From Octopus sinensis (lineage: Eukaryota): a stretch of 64,000 nucleotides of DNA. Every line of letters begins with the position of its first letter. Positions within the stretch are counted from its first letter, which is position 1. The DNA lies in NCBI RefSeq assembly GCF_006345805.1, contig NC_042999.1, positions 98,642,001 through 98,706,000 on the forward strand, read 5' to 3'. Positions 2,400 to 11,161 of this stretch are shown in pieces. Made by a program: the position numbers.

Positions 2400-5300
2400 T
2401 GCATGTACGTATGTGTGTATGTATAAGAACAATATAACGCGAGGATGGAAGATACCAGGCTTTAATAGTAGATCAGAACATTTGTTTCTGCACTGCAGAC
2501 CCATATTCATATACCATTATACAAAATTATACTTTATAATTACTATATAGTTGAATGTTTTTTCAGTAAGAGCCGCGTGTGGCCGCTTCATCGGGTGGAG
2601 TACGATCAAACACCCGGAATTTAATAATTTGATTGGTGAACAGTAAAGTACATCCGACAGTGTTTTCATGGTATTACAACCGATGAAAGGCCCACACACT
2701 GTTACTGCTGAAAAATATTCAATTAAAAGAATAATCTTGCATAATGGTATTTTAATATAAACTCAGCAACTTAATGCTGGTGTTCGGCGCAGTAACAAAT
2801 CTTCTGATCTACTATTAAAGCCTGGTGTCTTCCATCCTCTGTTATATTATTCTTGTATTAATCTTGTATTCCGCGTGTATCCAGCCTTGGAAAATATCCT
2901 ACTGTAGAATAACATGTGGTGGTCAAATAAGCGCACAAAAGCTCTTAAATGCCTGTTGCGAGATTTTTACTCGAATTATACTGTTTGTGTGTTTGTGTGT
3001 ATGTGTGTGTATGCGCGTGTTTTACTTTTTTTATTTGTATTATTGTTTGCTGTGAATATATTTCTTGTGCTATTCGCACTTAAAAACTTAGTGAACTTCT
3101 CATCCTTGACTTCTTTCATCGGAATTATGGATTAGAAAAAAGAGCTCCAATTGAATACTCTAGTTTTAGAAACACTATGAAAGAGAAAAAGCAAGCATAT
3201 ATTCATAGCTAGTATGATTTTGCTCATAGGTTTGTTTCATTGTGTTTGAACCATGGCTCAACAACTGAATCAATAATAATAGAATTAGGAATATATATAT
3301 AAACATCTTTGCGTTCATTTTCTTTAGTATCGAAATATTTATTTATAACCAGATATGATTGATTTTAAAGAAATGAAAAATGTCACTTTAAAAGTTATTG
3401 TATTTTTGCTTTCATTTTCTTTTATAAATATTAGATTTTGACATTAATTCATAGGAAAACATCACTATTTATCATCAGCCTTTCATTTTCTCATTTGTAA
3501 CCCAGGTCGGTCAAATTAACGGATCATTCTACCCGTTGGATAAAACAAGATGGCGCTTAATTTCAGAGAAATTACACGGTTCGAATTGTCCAAGTTATTG
3601 TCCAGCCTGCATCCAATGTTCCCATAACAGGACTGAATTATCGGTTAGCAAATTCGAAGAAGGAGACTTTTATGTAGCATTAGTACTTCCTGTTCAAAAG
3701 TCCCTAATATGTGATGAAACTAACCATGAAAACGAGTTGCTTGTTGATTATTTTTTGAAATCACTTCGCCAGATAAAAGAAAAGCATTCGACTGTGACCG
3801 GTAGCAAGCTAGGGGGTATTGTCATAGACTCCTGTCACTCTCAAAGTGACTCCGAAAACATGTGTTACAGTTTTATTGACAAAAATGGCATCAAGCGAGT
3901 AATAACTTCTGGTAACCTGTTATCCACTATTCATGTCCCCGATCTGAGCAAAGAGCCTTACCAAGAACACCCAAAAAGAAATTCTCTGCTACCCAGCATT
4001 CACATCACAAAAATCGGATGCTTCTTTGACAACTTAAATGTTCAAAAGTACGTATCTGTAATTTTGGATGTCATGGAGTCACTTCGCTGGTCTTATTTAA
4101 CTATATTATTATCAGAAAATCCATTCATGAAAGCAATTCATAAGGACCTTAGTAAACAAGCCAAAATGAAAAACATGTGCATTCGAAATGTTATATTAAT
4201 TGAAGATTTAAGAAGAGCTCAATTGCTTAATCAAAATAATCTTTTCTCTGAGCAAGATTCTTCGGCACTGGTTCTTCTAACTGATTTATCTGATACTTCT
4301 GAGTTTTTGCATTCTATTTCAAAACATTATGGTTCTTCTCATATATTCAATTTTGTTTTCTTCCCATGGAATTCAAAAGCGATTTCGAATTTAGGATCTA
4401 ATCTTTTTCAAAGTTCTGTTTTCATTGAAGTTAATAACCCAAAATCATATGAAATTTCCAGAAATGTCACCTCTTTGAATGTTTCTGAGCTAGAAAGTCA
4501 ACTTGAAATGTGTCATTTAAGTCCTTCTGGGAAAATCTATTGTCCTGCGGGCAAAATTGTGAAGAAGTCGCAAAAATCGGTATTCTTTAGTTATTTGACA
4601 TCTGTACTAGAGGTTACTGCCACTGCCTTAGATCAAGTCAGTTCTAAATTATGTTCCGGAAAGAAAGGACTTTGTAACGAATTTCTTGAATGGCCAAATG
4701 TGATGTCAAACTTCCGACATTTCTTGAAAACATCACCTGTTTTCTTATTCGGTGAAAAAACACACTTTGATGAGAATGGAGCTCTGGAAGCCAACTTTGC
4801 CATGAAAAACCTTCGAAGAATCGGAGACGAATTTGAATGGATCCAGGTAAGTGTTGAAATATCTTTTAGTAAAAATCAGAAAGAAGATAGTGGTTTCGTA
4901 ATACGTATAGCTCACATTTCAGCGATCCATATAAAATCACGACTAATATTTATATTTCTTGGATGTATTTTAAGCTGTCAAGTAAGGAATTATAGAATTT
5001 GACTTTATTTTTCTGTTGTAAATTGTGCGAAAGATTTTCATAAAATTTTAATGTCATAGTTGGACCTTGTAAGTTTACACATGTGCATACAGTTTATTTC
5101 TATGTTTACAGTTTAAGGGCACATATCCTTTAGATATCGGACCCTGTGTAACCTCATCTACCCAAATGCAAGTTACTTTCGGTGAATTCAGATTTTTTAT
5201 TGAATAAATATTCCTTCCATATATTTTGAAACTATATACTCCTAGCTGGTTTCATATCTGCATGGAGTAAGTAGAAGCATTGGATTAAATTTTGGAACAT

Positions 5301-8654: not shown

Positions 8655-11161
8655 ATCTATCTATATCTGTCCATCTAAATCAGTGGTTCCCAACCGTTTT
8701 TTGGCCATGCCCCACCGAATCATTTCTAAAATCCTGATGCCCCCCTTGTGATATTTAATTTTTGGTATTCAAAATTTGGTTAATGTTTACAATATTACCC
8801 GGAAACAAACCCCCAAAAAAATTGTGCAACGGATGTAAAAAAAATGTGTAGGAAAAGAATATAAAAAAATGCGCGGAAAGCAACGGGAGGTGGGGGATAA
8901 GGACTTTGGAAAATTCACAAGATCCGAATTTTTCCTTCATAGCTTCTAAGGAATTTTTTTTTTTAGATGAAATTTTAAATAGATACCTTTCAACCAGCAT
9001 ATATTACGATTATAAAGAAATTTGTGGGAAAGTCTTTCCGTAAGACTAGTTTCGATTCCTAGTCCTGACGGAACGTTGTGTTCTTGCGCAAAGCACTTCA
9101 TTTCACGTTGCTCCAATCTACTCAGTCGACAAAAATAAATAATTCTATGGCGGACCGGTATCCCGTCCAAGTGGGGAATATAAACCCCACAGAATCCGGG
9201 AAAACGACCTTATGAAGCTATGGCTCTGGAAGAAATTTTGATCCTATTTTCTCCTAACGTATCTACCTTTTGCTGTTCACTTTTCTGTCTCTGTTTTTTA
9301 TTCCGTTTACTATCCATGTACTTTTGGTTATCGTTGCTACCTTTACTTGACTTCTTGCATCTTTCTGTCCCTTCTTTTACTCCTTTTCGATGGGCTATAG
9401 TGCACCTGAGCACTGGATACATCAAACTCATTAGTCTGATTAACATCAGAATATGTGACAACCGCCATCACACTTTAGTGAACCCACTGCTAAATATACT
9501 AAACAAAAGTCGGGTACTATTTTTTTCTACAAGCATCATTTTGATTGATTAATCTGTTTTACTTTTTTAAGAAGAGGAGAAACTAATTCGTACTTACCGG
9601 ATTCATGGCTAACAATTAAAATTTGACCGTAAAACCATATTAACATTTTTTATTTCGTTGTAATGAAAAAATATGAGATTGGGATTTTGCGATTTCTGTA
9701 ATCTTCATTTTCTTCATTAGTACGAAATAAATAGATGAAATGCGATTCTACAGTTGTATTTTAATTTCTAACTGCTATGAAGTAACTAAAACTTTCTTTC
9801 ATCACAAATGAGCAAAATGAATGAGCCAACCAAAAGAAATCATGTAGATTATTATCTCTTTGATGTAAAATATAAAATGGTATTGCAATTAGTACTCTAT
9901 TCATAGTGAATTTATCATATTTTATTTCTTTATCTTTTATCTTCATTAGGTTGCCGAATGGAAAGATGACACTTTGTTCGAAGTTATAAAAACCACCATC
10001 TTACTAAATGACAATTTTGGTGATGATCTGGATAAAGAAGATGTCAGGTTAATGATGGAGGCCAGTTGTGAAGAGAAGTTTTGTACGTGTGCGAATATGC
10101 CACCAAAACCAACTCCATCTATGAAATCTACAATGGCACTAACATTACGGGATGAAGGATTTGTAAAGTCGACTGGTCAGTTTCGGGGAACTATTTGGGC
10201 AACTGTAGTAATAACAGTGGCGGCTGCTGGTGTCTTAACGGCGATTGGAATCTTCACGTATCTTCTTTATAAATATTGTCTGGGTACCGGTTGCGGACGA
10301 CGCTATTGTACTTTAGCGTTGATCCTGTTATTTGCTCTTGTTGTACAATATTCCACCATCTTACCATTTGTTTTCACGCCCAACGAACTTGTATGCGAGA
10401 TGCGTTATTTTGCTCCTGCTTTTGGTTATGCATTTACCCTTAGTATAATACTCGTGAAGCTAATGAATCTTCACGATTATAGATTAATAGGACTCGGTGG
10501 AACTTTATCAATTGTCAACCAGTTATTGACAATTGTTTTTATAACAGGCATCCAAGTAGCAGTCGGTCTGCAACGATGGCTTCTAAAGAAATCTGCACTG
10601 GCAAAGATGGTTACTTACTATGGAGTTTCCATCTATAGTTGTTTGTTTGATAAGTATGATTTTATTTACTACATCTGTTATCCGATGTTTCTACAGATTC
10701 TCATCTTGCTTTACGCAATCTCTCTTTACAAAGAGAAGAGAAATCTCCGTGAAGCCAAATATATTCTTTTGGCTTGTGTTTTCAGCATTGTTGTTTGGTT
10801 GGCGTGGCAACTGGTCTACTTCTTGCAACCAAGCAAATTCATGCAACCGGCTGTCGCAATCGGTATCCTAATATTTACCACTGTTAATTTATCTCTCATC
10901 TTTATTCCTAAGATACACATGATGGCCACTCTAAGATATGATGTCAACAAGACGTCACAGGATCACTACAGTACCAAAGCCGATTCAGACTTTTTCTTTG
11001 AAAGACCTTTTTCTCTTCCTGGCACATTGAAAACATCTGTTTCTGAAAAAACATATGCAAGATCTTACGACGCTTTTGAGAATTCAAATTATTCATCGGG
11101 GTCTGTTTGATATGTGGTTTTGGGGATTTCGGTAATAATTTTAATCGGAGTATGTAAATAA

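Follow-up and report, generated by a model that had tools for sequence, protein, structure and literature searches.

The question raised by this locus is whether a single octopus gene specifies a membrane receptor with three Venus-flytrap domains (VFTs) in a row, where one is usual. A preliminary description of the window (the whole 64,000-nt stretch of Octopus sinensis DNA analysed here) had noticed two VFT exons followed by a class C 7TM exon, and had placed a third VFT upstream. As best explanation we propose one Octopus gene encoding an orphan class C GPCR with three serial VFTs, with the origin and the mechanism discussed below; taken as a whole, we consider this explanation probable. The design is common to snails, clams and cephalopods.

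All three exons lie on the + strand. Exon A (3506..4846; 447 codons, 1341 nt) comprises the closing strand of VFT1, the linker between VFT1 and VFT2, and almost all of VFT2; exon B (6154..7704; 517 codons, 1551 nt) comprises the closing strand of VFT2, the linker between VFT2 and VFT3, and almost all of VFT3. Both are phase 0-0. Exon C (9950..11110; 386 codons, 1161 nt, with the TGA stop at 11108-11110) completes VFT3 with its closing strand and then encodes a linker with three Cys, the 7TM domain and the cytoplasmic tail. Both introns have a TAG acceptor; the donor is GTAAGT in the intron separating exons A and B (4847..6153, + strand, 1307 nt) and GTTAGT in that separating exons B and C (7705..9949, + strand, 2245 nt), where simple repeats are abundant. 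In their exon context, the donors read CAG/GTAAGT past 4846 and AAG/GTTAGT past 7704, and the acceptors consist of a polypyrimidine tract followed by CAG/GTC (3506), TAG/GTT (6154) and TAG/GTT (9950). With these consensus sites and exon lengths divisible by 3, the junctions proposed earlier and their in-frame product of about 1350 aa are borne out (447+517+386 = 1350 aa). Long open frames occupy 3455-5002, 6154-7845 and 9950-11110 (515, 563 and 386 codons), the chance of their remaining open being 1e-17, 3e-19 and 2e-13, respectively, with stop codons expected at 7.3% per codon for this base composition. Every motif listed in the preliminary description (GD..PV, IDSC/LDTC, W.Y/W.H, CI, AL......C.G..GLC, FDE) was found in the exon translations, and each exon indeed opens with a V-G/A strand and a Cys linker.

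Exons A, B and C correspond to residues 434-880, 881-1397 and 1398-1783 of P0001, a 1783-aa NCBI predicted model from Octopus vulgaris, with identities of 98.7%, 99.6% and 99.7% (tblastn) and identical exon junctions. The Argonauta hians model P0002 has the same layout; exon C is 93% identical to the Argonauta protein and 67% identical to P0003 (tblastn). The first P0001 residue aligned by tblastn is 433, just upstream of the 3506 acceptor, and residues 1-432 gave no match within the window. The VFT predicted upstream is present in the model: residues 1-433 (module 1), outside the window, are recognized as a VFT by hhalign against canonical class C VFTs (probability 99.5%, E 5e-23, 351 columns; the target for this and the other modules consisted of 10 canonical receptors). 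To judge from these alignments, one Octopus gene has its last three coding exons in the window, with VFT1 encoded further upstream.

The two ANF_receptor hits and the 7tm_3 hit expected for the window are present in Pfam searches, at 3.7e-10 for exon A, 7.6e-10 for exon B and 3e-24 for exon C, the last scoring 86.5 bits (cut-off 33.5) and covering profile positions 6-251 of 251. P0001, P0002 and P0003 each show three ANF_receptor stretches plus 7tm_3. That the window holds two complete VFTs, in exons A and B, is upheld also by profile-profile comparison and by fold search. Modules 2 (exon A) and 3 (exon B) both matched the canonical VFT with 100% hhalign probability (E 6.4e-40 over 406 columns and E 5.8e-45 over 428 columns). 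AF2 models, whose input alignment was shallow at 25 rows, reached pLDDT 73.9 and pTM 0.73 for exon A, and pLDDT 75.0 and pTM 0.77 for exon B; as predicted, VFT2 and VFT3 are complete bilobed clamshells. The best Foldseek match of exon A was mGlu2 chain 7mts_A (E 7.2e-18, 467 columns), and that of exon B mGlu2 chain 8jcy_2 (E 1.6e-22, TM 0.65, 479 columns), the structures matched being VFTs of mGluRs and CaSR. Searched against PDB, exon B matched the mGluR8 VFT (phmmer, 7e-15, residues 58-467) and exon C the mGluR3 7TM (8.7e-9). VFT3, the membrane-proximal domain, is the most mGluR-like of the VFTs. All PDB relatives are single-VFT chains, in agreement with the earlier description of characterised class C receptors as carrying just one VFT each.

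The 7TM domain maps to 10193..10912 (+ strand; exon C residues 82-321, Pfam 7tm_3), and hydrophobic segments occupy exon C residues 78-326. When 24 long mollusc relatives were aligned, C1546, K1567, C1628, N1662, E1665, A1666, W1680, P1717 and K1718 were invariant in all 24, each being the same residue in mGluR2. These sites represent the TM3 and ECL2 Cys, the TM3 Lys, the N..EA motif, the TM6 Trp and the TM7 P-K. All class C switch residues checked are kept in the 7TM domain. The cytoplasmic tail (10913..11107, + strand, 65 aa) carries a D-F-x-F-E-R-P-x-S-L-P-G-T-L motif conserved over the 24 proteins, in which D1742, F1745, E1748, R1749, P1750, L1753 and P1754 are invariant or nearly so.

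The suspicion that the same design might exist as uncharacterised models in other molluscs proved correct: it was found over gastropods, bivalves and cephalopods. At least 23 of the 24 aligned relatives have three full VFT modules plus a 7TM (HMM counts, among the matches listed); P0011, outside the HMM matches listed, has four modules in the alignment. The four blocks, of about 420, 440, 465 and 375 aa, align in 24/24, and the 7TM is present in every one of these proteins. Family examples are Haliotis rubra LOC124270135, Lottia gigantea LOTGIDRAFT_169148 and Pecten maximus LOC117331296, which have the same four modules and linker Cys clusters as the octopus protein; none of six family locus tags was found in the literature. 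In a 7TM tree (quick search, SH-aLRT only, midpoint root, sample picked by similarity to exon B), the octopus protein falls in a clade of 32 mollusc-type proteins with SH-aLRT 100, within which related taxa, grouped by genus name, form sub-clades. The uncharacterised family models belong to this same clade, and their 7TM is 32-39% identical to that of the octopus protein. The gene is old, as the 100%-supported clade covers cephalopods, gastropods and bivalves. Conservation is uneven: VFT1 and VFT2 are the least conserved, with 18-19% identity to non-cephalopod orthologues as against 35% for the 7TM. Several shorter family models have an apparently truncated N-terminus. In the sample searched, the family clade contains one locus per named species; the two models of Mya arenaria share a contig.

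Could exons A and B nonetheless be mutually exclusive or cassette exons, so that mature receptors have fewer VFTs and the three-VFT protein is an artefact of gene prediction? Because all exons are phase 0-0, the frame would survive exon skipping that left one or two VFTs; owing to the shared V-G/A strand and Cys-linker start, exons joined in any combination would keep it and could close the VFT before the junction. Moreover, the octopus three-VFT model is a prediction, and the predicted models of four Imparidentia bivalves (Mercenaria, Mactra, Mya and Dreissena) have two VFTs, module 2 being wholly absent. These four, however, form one 99%-supported clade, a pattern that reads as one loss rather than as splicing. 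Exons A and B share only about 20% identity and, unlike typical alternative exons of recent duplication, each has its own orthologous module kept separately in 24 mollusc proteins. Further evidence comes from P0003 (1935 aa), P0158 (1663 aa) and P0161 (1718 aa), whose longest contigs measure 6655, 5727 and 5617 nt. The full ORF takes up 87-92% of these contigs, where introns of 1307 and 2245 nt would not fit; because the complete three-VFT ORF is unbroken on 5.6-6.7 kb in three records, the VFT exons are serial and not alternatives. Apart from an origin in RNA, such contigs could be intron-less copies. The three VFTs and the 7TM domain follow one another, in this order, in one ORF; together with the consensus splice sites and the P0001 junctions, this agrees with the initial proposal of exons spliced in one gene, and alternative use of exons A and B appears very improbable. 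Even less credible is an assembly or annotation artefact in which one model wrongly joins pieces of a tandem series of class C genes or pseudogenes. Tandem arrays are common among class C genes, and genome models, those of NCBI included, are predicted automatically. Yet the three frames are open far beyond chance, the window has no N anywhere, and tblastn detected no other VFT or 7TM exon copy in the 64 kb, nor any 7TM between the VFT exons. The order and the identities of the modules are the same in independent assemblies, in 27 named mollusc models. The artefact reading is already largely refuted.

A short, conserved cluster of Cys residues follows every VFT. In the linker between VFT1 and VFT2 it has the form C-x3-C-x2-C-x2-C (3587..3619, + strand; exon A residues 28-38), with the four Cys kept in 23, 23, 24 and 21 of 24 orthologues. 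The cluster between VFT2 and VFT3, C-x2-W-C-P-x-C-x2-C (6250..6282, + strand; exon B residues 33-43), has C33, W36, C37, P38, C40 and C43 invariant in the alignment, the four Cys in 24/24. Between VFT3 and the 7TM the linker is reduced to C-x4-C-x-C (10067..10090, + strand; exon C residues 40-47); C1437, C1442 and C1444 are invariant in 24/24, and the first two align with Cys 1 and 2 of the mGluR2 cysteine-rich domain in the family profile. A Pfam search of P0001 gave no NCD3G match at E<=0.01. We take this linker to be what remains of a class C cysteine-rich domain. In mGluR and CaSR that domain transmits the signal; its reduction to three Cys suggests that coupling may differ here. GABA-B, with one VFT per chain, is a class C receptor that functions without a full cysteine-rich domain. 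The linker regions of the exon A and exon B AF2 models have pLDDT below 50, a fold of low confidence. Altogether, a Cys cluster after every VFT and the match to the start of the mGluR cysteine-rich domain fit a tandem duplication of a VFT plus its linker, and we infer that the array arose by internal tandem duplication. The duplicated segment would have run from just past the signal peptide to just past the cysteine-rich domain, intron included. Such a segment would explain why each exon opens with the closing strand of the previous VFT, continues with a reduced cysteine-rich linker and then enters the next VFT; the intron carried along would account for the uniform phase 0.

The best relatives of the octopus receptor in sequence and fold are the mGluRs, especially group II (mGluR2/3): mGluR2 is the best match of the family profile (3.2e-84), and the top Foldseek matches of both exons are mGlu2 chains. 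Whole chains of mGluR1/4/8 and CaSR are collinear with family profile positions 957-1692, that is, with VFT3, linker and 7TM. The mGluRs differ, however, in having one VFT per chain where the octopus receptor has three, and a cysteine-rich domain of nine Cys where the octopus linker has three and no NCD3G match; VFT identity is only about 18-20%. The amino-acid contact residues of the mGluRs are not conserved in the octopus family either. Canonical contacts S, T, D, Y and D (mGluR1 numbering, with pocket positions mapped via one proxy sequence, P0004) are present in 10, 9, 8, 10 and 8 of 10 canonical rows. Over 24 orthologues, VFT3 has them in 5, 0, 0, 2 and 6, and VFT2 in at most 5 at every position; in VFT1 four of the five are missing and the fifth, the D318 equivalent, is D in 13/24. 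Single positions are alignment-dependent: at the T188 position exon B has Thr in the phmmer alignment with mGluR8 but Asn by hhalign. As none of the three pockets appears to have the canonical amino-acid contacts, "mGluR-like" would be a misnomer, and "metabotropic glutamate receptor-like", as the databases have it, is a label of similarity and not of function.

The chain would thus be composed of a signal peptide, VFT1, a Cys linker, VFT2, a second Cys linker, VFT3, the three-Cys linker, the 7TM and the conserved tail. Tentatively, and with somewhat less than an even chance of being right, we envisage that its C-terminal half (VFT3, short Cys linker, 7TM) acts as an ordinary class C receptor. 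Membrane-proximal VFT3 would change conformation, probably inside a receptor dimer, and the short linker, stapled by disulfides, would pass the change on to the 7TM, which retains the class C switch residues checked and so would probably signal via G proteins. The distal VFT1 and VFT2 would be regulatory or partner-binding modules biasing VFT3, and the ligand would be other than an alpha-amino acid in the canonical pose. Ionotropic glutamate receptors also stack two clamshells per chain (ATD and LBD), the distal one regulatory; these are ion channels, and their clamshells are of different types. The literature searched yielded no description of a three-VFT class C design, and for tandem VFTs in one receptor chain it gave only bacterial BvgS, EvgS and CdgH. 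In BvgS the state of the transmembrane segment is set by a distal VFT1 that is mobile together with a proximal VFT2 that is closed (PMC4352136); VFT1 and VFT2 are proposed to bias VFT3 here in the way that VFT1 acts on VFT2 there. The bacterial proteins resemble the octopus receptor in having tandem VFTs whose distal and proximal members jointly set the state of the membrane part. They are unrelated to it in descent and output, with VFTs of the periplasmic-binding type on a histidine kinase or cyclase, and neither 7TM nor Cys linkers; the likeness is drawn from descriptions, not from sequence.

The ectodomain could instead be something other than a small-molecule sensor. The absence and variability of canonical pocket residues in all three VFTs, ectodomain invariants that are mostly structural Cys, Trp, Gly and Pro, the highly conserved tail motif, and a single locus per named species (in the sample searched) rather than an expanded family of the chemoreceptor type would all suit a long, disulfide-stapled stalk made of the three VFTs, for binding a protein partner or the matrix or for bearing mechanical load, with the 7TM reporting adhesion or force, or scaffolding partners via the tail. 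We hold this to be unlikely: every class C activation residue checked is retained in the 7TM, suggesting conventional conformational signalling, both VFTs modelled are predicted to be complete bilobed clamshells, and losing the amino-acid contacts leaves room for another small ligand or an ion. Less likely still is that the three VFTs have a separate ligand each, the receptor combining several chemical signals, as had been suggested at the outset. Three complete clamshells per chain speak for it; multi-ligand integration, however, needs working pockets, and the idea is weakened for the octopus gene by contacts that seem unconserved in 24 orthologues, all three pockets being off-pattern with positions that vary, and by the low conservation of VFT1 and VFT2 relative to the 7TM. 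Multiple sensing fits better, to judge by pocket residues, with a second multi-VFT class C lineage (P0009, P0018, P0038, P0051 and others, as well as Physella acuta LOC131936264). Like the octopus family, this has serial VFTs followed by one 7tm_3 without NCD3G, and its 7TMs lie with those of the octopus family on one side of a 100%-supported branch, apart from 14 single-VFT receptors. It differs in having two to five full VFT modules, which score best with the canonical VFT profile and not with modules 1-3. The canonical S-T-D-Y-D pattern occurs at four or more of the 5 positions in 21/91 of these modules, and P0051 has it in all five of its VFTs; with many canonical pockets per chain, multi-pocket sensing is plausible for that architecture.

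Three exons on the forward strand (A, 3506-4846; B, 6154-7704; C, 9950-11110) are carried by open frames of 515, 563 and 386 codons (3455-5002, 6154-7845 and 9950-11110, respectively). Since stops are expected in 7.3% of codons at the composition of the window, which has 35% G+C and zero N, the chance of frames of these lengths staying open is 1e-17, 3e-19 and 2e-13. Acceptors consist of a polypyrimidine tract followed by CAG/GTC (3506), TAG/GTT (6154) and TAG/GTT (9950), and the donors after 4846 and 7704 read CAG/GTAAGT and AAG/GTTAGT, the slash marking the junction. Thus, the exon boundaries proposed in the preliminary description coincide with good splice sites at each junction, and the motifs that it had named are all present in the exon translations. 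The exons measure 1341, 1551 and 1161 nt, are separated by introns of 1307 nt (A-B) and 2245 nt (B-C), and are all of phase 0-0; together they encode 1350 residues (447+517+386). They have a common opening, made up of V-G/A-Q/E with a short strand, about 25-35 residues, a Cys cluster and the next domain. The cluster is C-x3-C-x2-C-x2-C in exon A, C-x2-W-C-P-x-C-x2-C in exon B and C-x4-C-x-C in exon C.

The initial open reading frames overrun the true donor sites because of dense simple repeats. These occupy both strands at approximately 7750-8600 and 11100-16100, within intron 2 and beyond the end of the gene, and produce long but spurious frames in which Y-I, C-V and H-T pairs abound. A tblastn search of the 64-kb window with the three exon translations disclosed no further Venus flytrap (VFT) or seven-transmembrane (7TM) exon, the sole cross-matches being those between exons A and B (E 5e-6 and 5e-5). 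Rfam yielded zero matches in the window, and Pfam searches of eight other open frames found nothing beyond a DDE_1 transposase fragment. The latter is probably a transposon remnant: it is a 172-aa open frame at 32031-32546 on the reverse strand and corresponds to the C-terminal portion of a transposase of the DDE_1 (pogo/Tigger) type (E 6.4e-9).

The three exons were searched and folded separately; whole-protein analyses used database proteins. In Pfam, exon A matches ANF_receptor at 3.7e-10 (profile positions 105-350), exon B matches the same family at 7.6e-10 (positions 4-254), and exon C spans positions 6-251 of the 251 of 7tm_3 (E 3e-24; 86.5 bits, with a cut-off of 33.5). Against PDB sequences, residues 58-467 of exon B match the ligand-binding domains of mGluR8, 3, 7 and 4 (best E 7e-15) and exon C matches the mGluR3 7TM (8.7e-9); the match of exon A is weak (E 0.08) and limited to its C-terminal 80 residues. 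Folds obtained from 25-row alignments were of moderate confidence (pLDDT 73.9 and pTM 0.73 for exon A; 75.0 and 0.77 for exon B), with pLDDT below 50 in both for the linker at the start of the exon. When these folds were compared to the PDB with Foldseek, both returned ligand-binding domains of mGluRs and CaSR at a probability of 1.00, the best hits being mGlu2 in either case (7mts_A for exon A, E 7.2e-18, TM 0.56, 467 columns; 8jcy_2 for exon B, E 1.6e-22, TM 0.65, 479 columns). Each of the two exons thus encodes a whole bilobed flytrap. The two exons are only about 20% identical, implying that the duplication is old. A complex prediction for the second and third flytraps, entered as two chains (residues 40-447 of exon A, residues 50-517 of exon B), scored 0.00 in both runs, a value that speaks neither for nor against an intramolecular pairing.

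A search of a large protein set with exon B, confined to longer proteins, returned four matches: P0001, a 1783-aa Octopus vulgaris model called "metabotropic glutamate receptor-like"; P0002, an Argonauta hians model of the same name (1776 aa); P0003 (1935 aa); and P0004, a canonical receptor of 959 aa. By tblastn, residues 434-880, 881-1397 and 1398-1783 of P0001 correspond exactly to exons A, B and C, with 98.7%, 99.6% and 99.7% identity (about 6, 2 and 1 residue differences), which points to a second individual or to a sister species within the O. vulgaris group as the origin of the window. Residues 1-432 have no tblastn match anywhere in the window, which places the first exon or exons upstream of it. 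Near its N-terminus, around residues 15-26, P0001 is strongly hydrophobic, and by eye this segment looks like a signal peptide. Pfam identifies three ANF_receptor stretches and one 7tm_3 in each of P0001, P0002 and P0003, and no NCD3G at E<=0.01 in any of them; canonical P0004 has NCD3G at 3.7e-9.

To compare modules by profile (hhalign), 24 long mollusc proteins were aligned and the alignment was cut into four blocks. Against the VFTs of ten canonical class C receptors, the match probability is 99.5% for module 1 (residues 1-433 of P0001; E 5e-23, 351 columns), 100% for module 2 (6.4e-40, 406 columns) and 100% for module 3 (5.8e-45, 428 columns); module 4 matches the 7TM of canonical receptors with 99.7%. 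The closest pair is formed by modules 2 and 3 (4.9e-51). The preliminary description had deduced from the start of exon A that another VFT lay upstream, and the module 1 match proves this correct. Its expectation of ANF_receptor and 7tm_3 hits was likewise borne out, with one VFT in each of exons A and B, 7tm_3 in exon C and three VFTs in P0001.

With every exon in phase 0-0, the splice pattern by itself is compatible with the VFT exons being used either in series or as alternatives. A decisive hint comes from unbroken three-VFT ORFs on short contigs: that of P0003 (5.8 kb) lies on a contig of 6655 nt, and those of database proteins P0158 (1663 aa) and P0161 (1718 aa) lie on contigs of 5727 and 5617 nt, respectively. 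Introns like those of the octopus gene would not fit in these contigs, so the copies appear to be transcript-derived or intron-less. These ORFs argue for serial rather than alternative exons. The serial reading is further supported by modules 2 and 3 each being kept as a distinct orthologous module across the family.

The preliminary description had also surmised that similar uncharacterised gene models might exist in other molluscs. An exhaustive search with exon B returned 185 proteins at E<=1e-3; among the matches listed (150 of 185), dozens have lengths of 1400-2870 aa and match in 3-7 stretches. Searching long proteins with residues 1398-1783 of P0001 recovered three cephalopod-type proteins only, by means of a word index that misses relatives around 35-40% identical. 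The 7TM of the Haliotis rubra member of the family retrieved 29 proteins, 27 of which are named; all 27 are mollusc models, which we take, mostly from the genus name, to be 11 gastropod and 16 bivalve entries. Their database labels read uncharacterised, hypothetical or mGluR-like. The surmised models are thus there (27 named, 24 aligned). All 24 aligned proteins divide into four blocks of roughly 420, 440, 465 and 375 aa, and three full VFT modules plus a 7TM were counted with HMMs in 23 of them (the count covers all but P0011). Identity between the octopus protein and the 21 non-cephalopods is 19%, 18%, 23% and 35% in modules 1 to 4, and the linker Cys residues are present in 21-24 of the 24. 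The module count was extended to 80 proteins with lengths of 1000 aa or more, 65 of which have the family 7TM; the other 15, mostly fragments, have no match to it. Among the 65, full and partial VFT modules number one in 2 proteins, two in 7, three in 30, four in 13, five in 11 and six in 2.

In a tree built from the 7TM of 73 proteins (quick search in IQ-TREE, supports by SH-aLRT only, midpoint root), 59 rows separated from 14 single-VFT rows with a support of 100. Of the 59, 58 have between two and five full VFT modules; the remaining one is a truncated Mya model counted as having a single VFT. The sample was picked by similarity to exon B, so that the tree shows clustering and not a place among all class C receptors; in this tree, built without named mGluR references, the octopus family stands outside the 14 single-VFT rows. 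The octopus protein belongs to a 32-row clade (support 100) whose sub-clades bring related taxa together, and 20 of the longer proteins make up a separate clade (support 98). Four bivalve models, P0033, P0157, P0169 and P0170 (Mercenaria, Mactra, Mya and Dreissena), consist of module 1, module 3 and the 7TM, without the exon-A-type module. All four are Imparidentia and form one clade (support 99), whose tree neighbours are two Unionida with three VFTs each. The pattern reads as a single loss of one phase-0 exon-A-type module, yet a shared annotation miss in the four models could also account for it.

The 7TM is the best conserved part of the receptor. Hallmarks of class C 7TM domains are the TM3-ECL2 Cys pair, the TM3 Lys that together with TM6 N..EA forms the "ionic lock", the TM6 Trp and the TM7 P-K-x-H/Y motif. 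Residues C1546, C1628, K1567, N1662, E1665, A1666, W1680, P1717 and K1718 are invariant in 24/24 proteins, each aligned to the identical residue in mGluR2. In the cytoplasmic tail (10913-11107, forward strand), the motif D-F-x-F-E-R-P-x-S-L-P-G-T-L is nearly invariant across the 24 mollusc proteins, exceeding any part of the ectodomain in conservation; it may be a docking or phosphorylation site.

Positions 957-1692 of the family profile, from VFT3 to the 7TM, are collinear with whole mGluR1, mGluR4, mGluR8 and CaSR chains, the best match being mGluR2 (3.2e-84). In the latter alignment, the K-V-G-x-W strand coincides with the last part of the mGluR2 VFT, and Cys 1 and 2 of the linker coincide with Cys 1 and 2 of the mGluR2 cysteine-rich domain. 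It follows from this collinearity that the intron before exon C cuts directly ahead of the last VFT strand. The linker preceding the 7TM has only three invariant Cys, and the Cys linkers resemble cysteine-rich domains in reduced form. We infer a tandem duplication, intron included, of a segment that began directly behind the signal peptide and ended directly behind the cysteine-rich domain. Each exon, in phase 0, would then comprise the closing strand of one VFT, a miniature cysteine-rich linker and the VFT that follows, and two rounds of duplication would have produced three VFTs. The exon structure would thus offer a clean example of a domain array growing by internal tandem duplication across an intron.

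The contact positions for amino acids were assumed to be S165, T188, D208, Y236 and D318, with R78 contacting the distal carboxylate (mGluR1 numbering). The five were mapped by hhalign via P0004 and P0001; counts in the ten canonical rows were obtained from hmmsearch -A fragments, a method that left mostly gaps for modules 1-3. Ser at S165 is found in 10/10 canonical rows and in 5/24 family VFT3s, including all three cephalopod-type proteins. Corresponding figures are 9/10 and 0/24 for T188, 8/10 and 0/24 for D208, 10/10 and 2/24 for Y236, and 8/10 and 6/24 for D318; single positions are alignment-dependent, and phmmer (exon B with mGluR8) disagrees at T188. PMC6307864 describes Arg78 and Lys409 as critical for glutamate; the R78-equivalent in VFT3 is R in 1/24. 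In VFT2, the canonical residue reaches a maximum of 5/24 at any contact position. VFT1 is without four of the five contacts and has Asp at the D318-equivalent in 13/24. The overall loss of amino-acid contacts in the VFTs of the family is clear.

The lost contacts together with the conserved 7TM lead us to propose a mechanism with a non-canonical ligand. VFT3, its linker and the 7TM would work as an ordinary class C transducer, VFT1 and VFT2 would serve as distal regulatory or partner-binding modules, and the ligand would not be a canonically held amino acid. We hold this combination with modest confidence. The role suggested for VFT1 and VFT2 is by analogy with BvgS (PMC4352136). BvgS-type sensors also have tandem VFTs in one chain; however, theirs are bacterial periplasmic VFTs joined to a histidine kinase, whereas those of the octopus receptor are of the ANF_receptor type and joined to 7tm_3. 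The octopus receptor is therefore not a BvgS-type member, and the likeness is a functional analogy only. The main rival to the transducer model holds that the ectodomain is purely structural, adhesive or mechanical. The contacts for glutamate and amino acids being absent, the label "metabotropic glutamate receptor-like" needs correcting, and neurobiological comparisons involving cephalopods or other molluscs should not count models of this family as mGluRs.

The octopus receptor shares with class C GPCRs the 7tm_3 heptahelical domain and a VFT (ANF_receptor) ectodomain. To our knowledge, all characterised members of the class have one VFT per chain; the three in P0001, P0002 and P0003 are the point of difference. 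A nine-Cys NCD3G domain lies between VFT and 7TM in mGluR, CaSR and T1R but not in GABA-B receptors, and so is not universal; in contrast to the former three, the octopus family has three invariant Cys and no NCD3G match. It also differs from the mGluRs whose name it carries in databases by the absence of the canonical glutamate/amino-acid contact pattern. Multi-VFT chains of class C are undescribed in the full-text literature searched (supplements and subscription journals excluded), and six locus tags of the family occur in no paper of that literature; family proteins could figure in the PMC6408891 class C tree or among the sequences listed for PMC6307864. Class C papers that speak of two VFT domains concern, by their titles, ordinary mGluR, CaSR and T1R, and we take the phrase there to mean the two subunits of a dimer. 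The sequences are public under automatic names only; their domains and transducer are ordinary class C, and the serial multi-VFT ectodomain is undescribed as far as we searched.

In the class C GPCRs whose mechanism is understood (mGluR, CaSR, T1R and GABA-B), each subunit has one flytrap and activation is explained by the two flytraps of a dimer moving relative to each other. A more ambitious proposal, which taken whole we consider rather unlikely, is that the octopus gene represents an undescribed class C subclass with two to five serial VFTs on one 7TM; this subclass would date back at least to the last common ancestor that bivalves, gastropods and cephalopods share, and in it the VFTs would be mechanically coupled through short disulfide-stapled linkers and the state of the distal ones relayed to the membrane-proximal VFT. 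If true, a single chain would be capable of combinatorial or coincidence detection, and pockets of the octopus lineage would have been re-purposed for other ligands or partners. The three-VFT family and its relatives with up to five raise the question of how clamshell motions travel along the chain, and that of whether one receptor reads several signals or partners. Natural constructs are on offer, in the form of three-, two- and five-VFT receptors with pockets kept or lost.

A second lineage, likewise of class C type, lacks NCD3G and has chains with two to five VFTs of canonical appearance. Examples among database proteins are P0009, P0014, P0018, P0038, P0046, P0051, P0060, P0067, P0171 and a Physella acuta protein. 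Pfam finds 4, 3, 5 and 5 ANF_receptor stretches in P0009, P0014, P0018 and P0038, each with one 7tm_3 and none with NCD3G, and the VFTs of the longer proteins score best with the canonical profile. Twenty-five second-lineage proteins supplied 91 modules with lengths of 300 aa or more; at least four of the five canonical residues are present in 21 of these modules and all five in 9. In P0051, the canonical pocket pattern, or a one-residue variant of it, is found in five out of five VFTs. Hence, the "multi-sensor" idea of the preliminary description is better suited to this lineage, with its canonical pockets, than to the octopus gene, where contacts are lost; under the proposal of an undescribed subclass, it would be a sister lineage with up to five amino-acid-type pockets. 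The atlas cluster nearest to P0014 (1368 aa, 7tm_3 plus ANF_receptor) has 88 members with Arthropoda as the commonest phylum, and hints, as a lead only, at receptors longer than one VFT outside molluscs.
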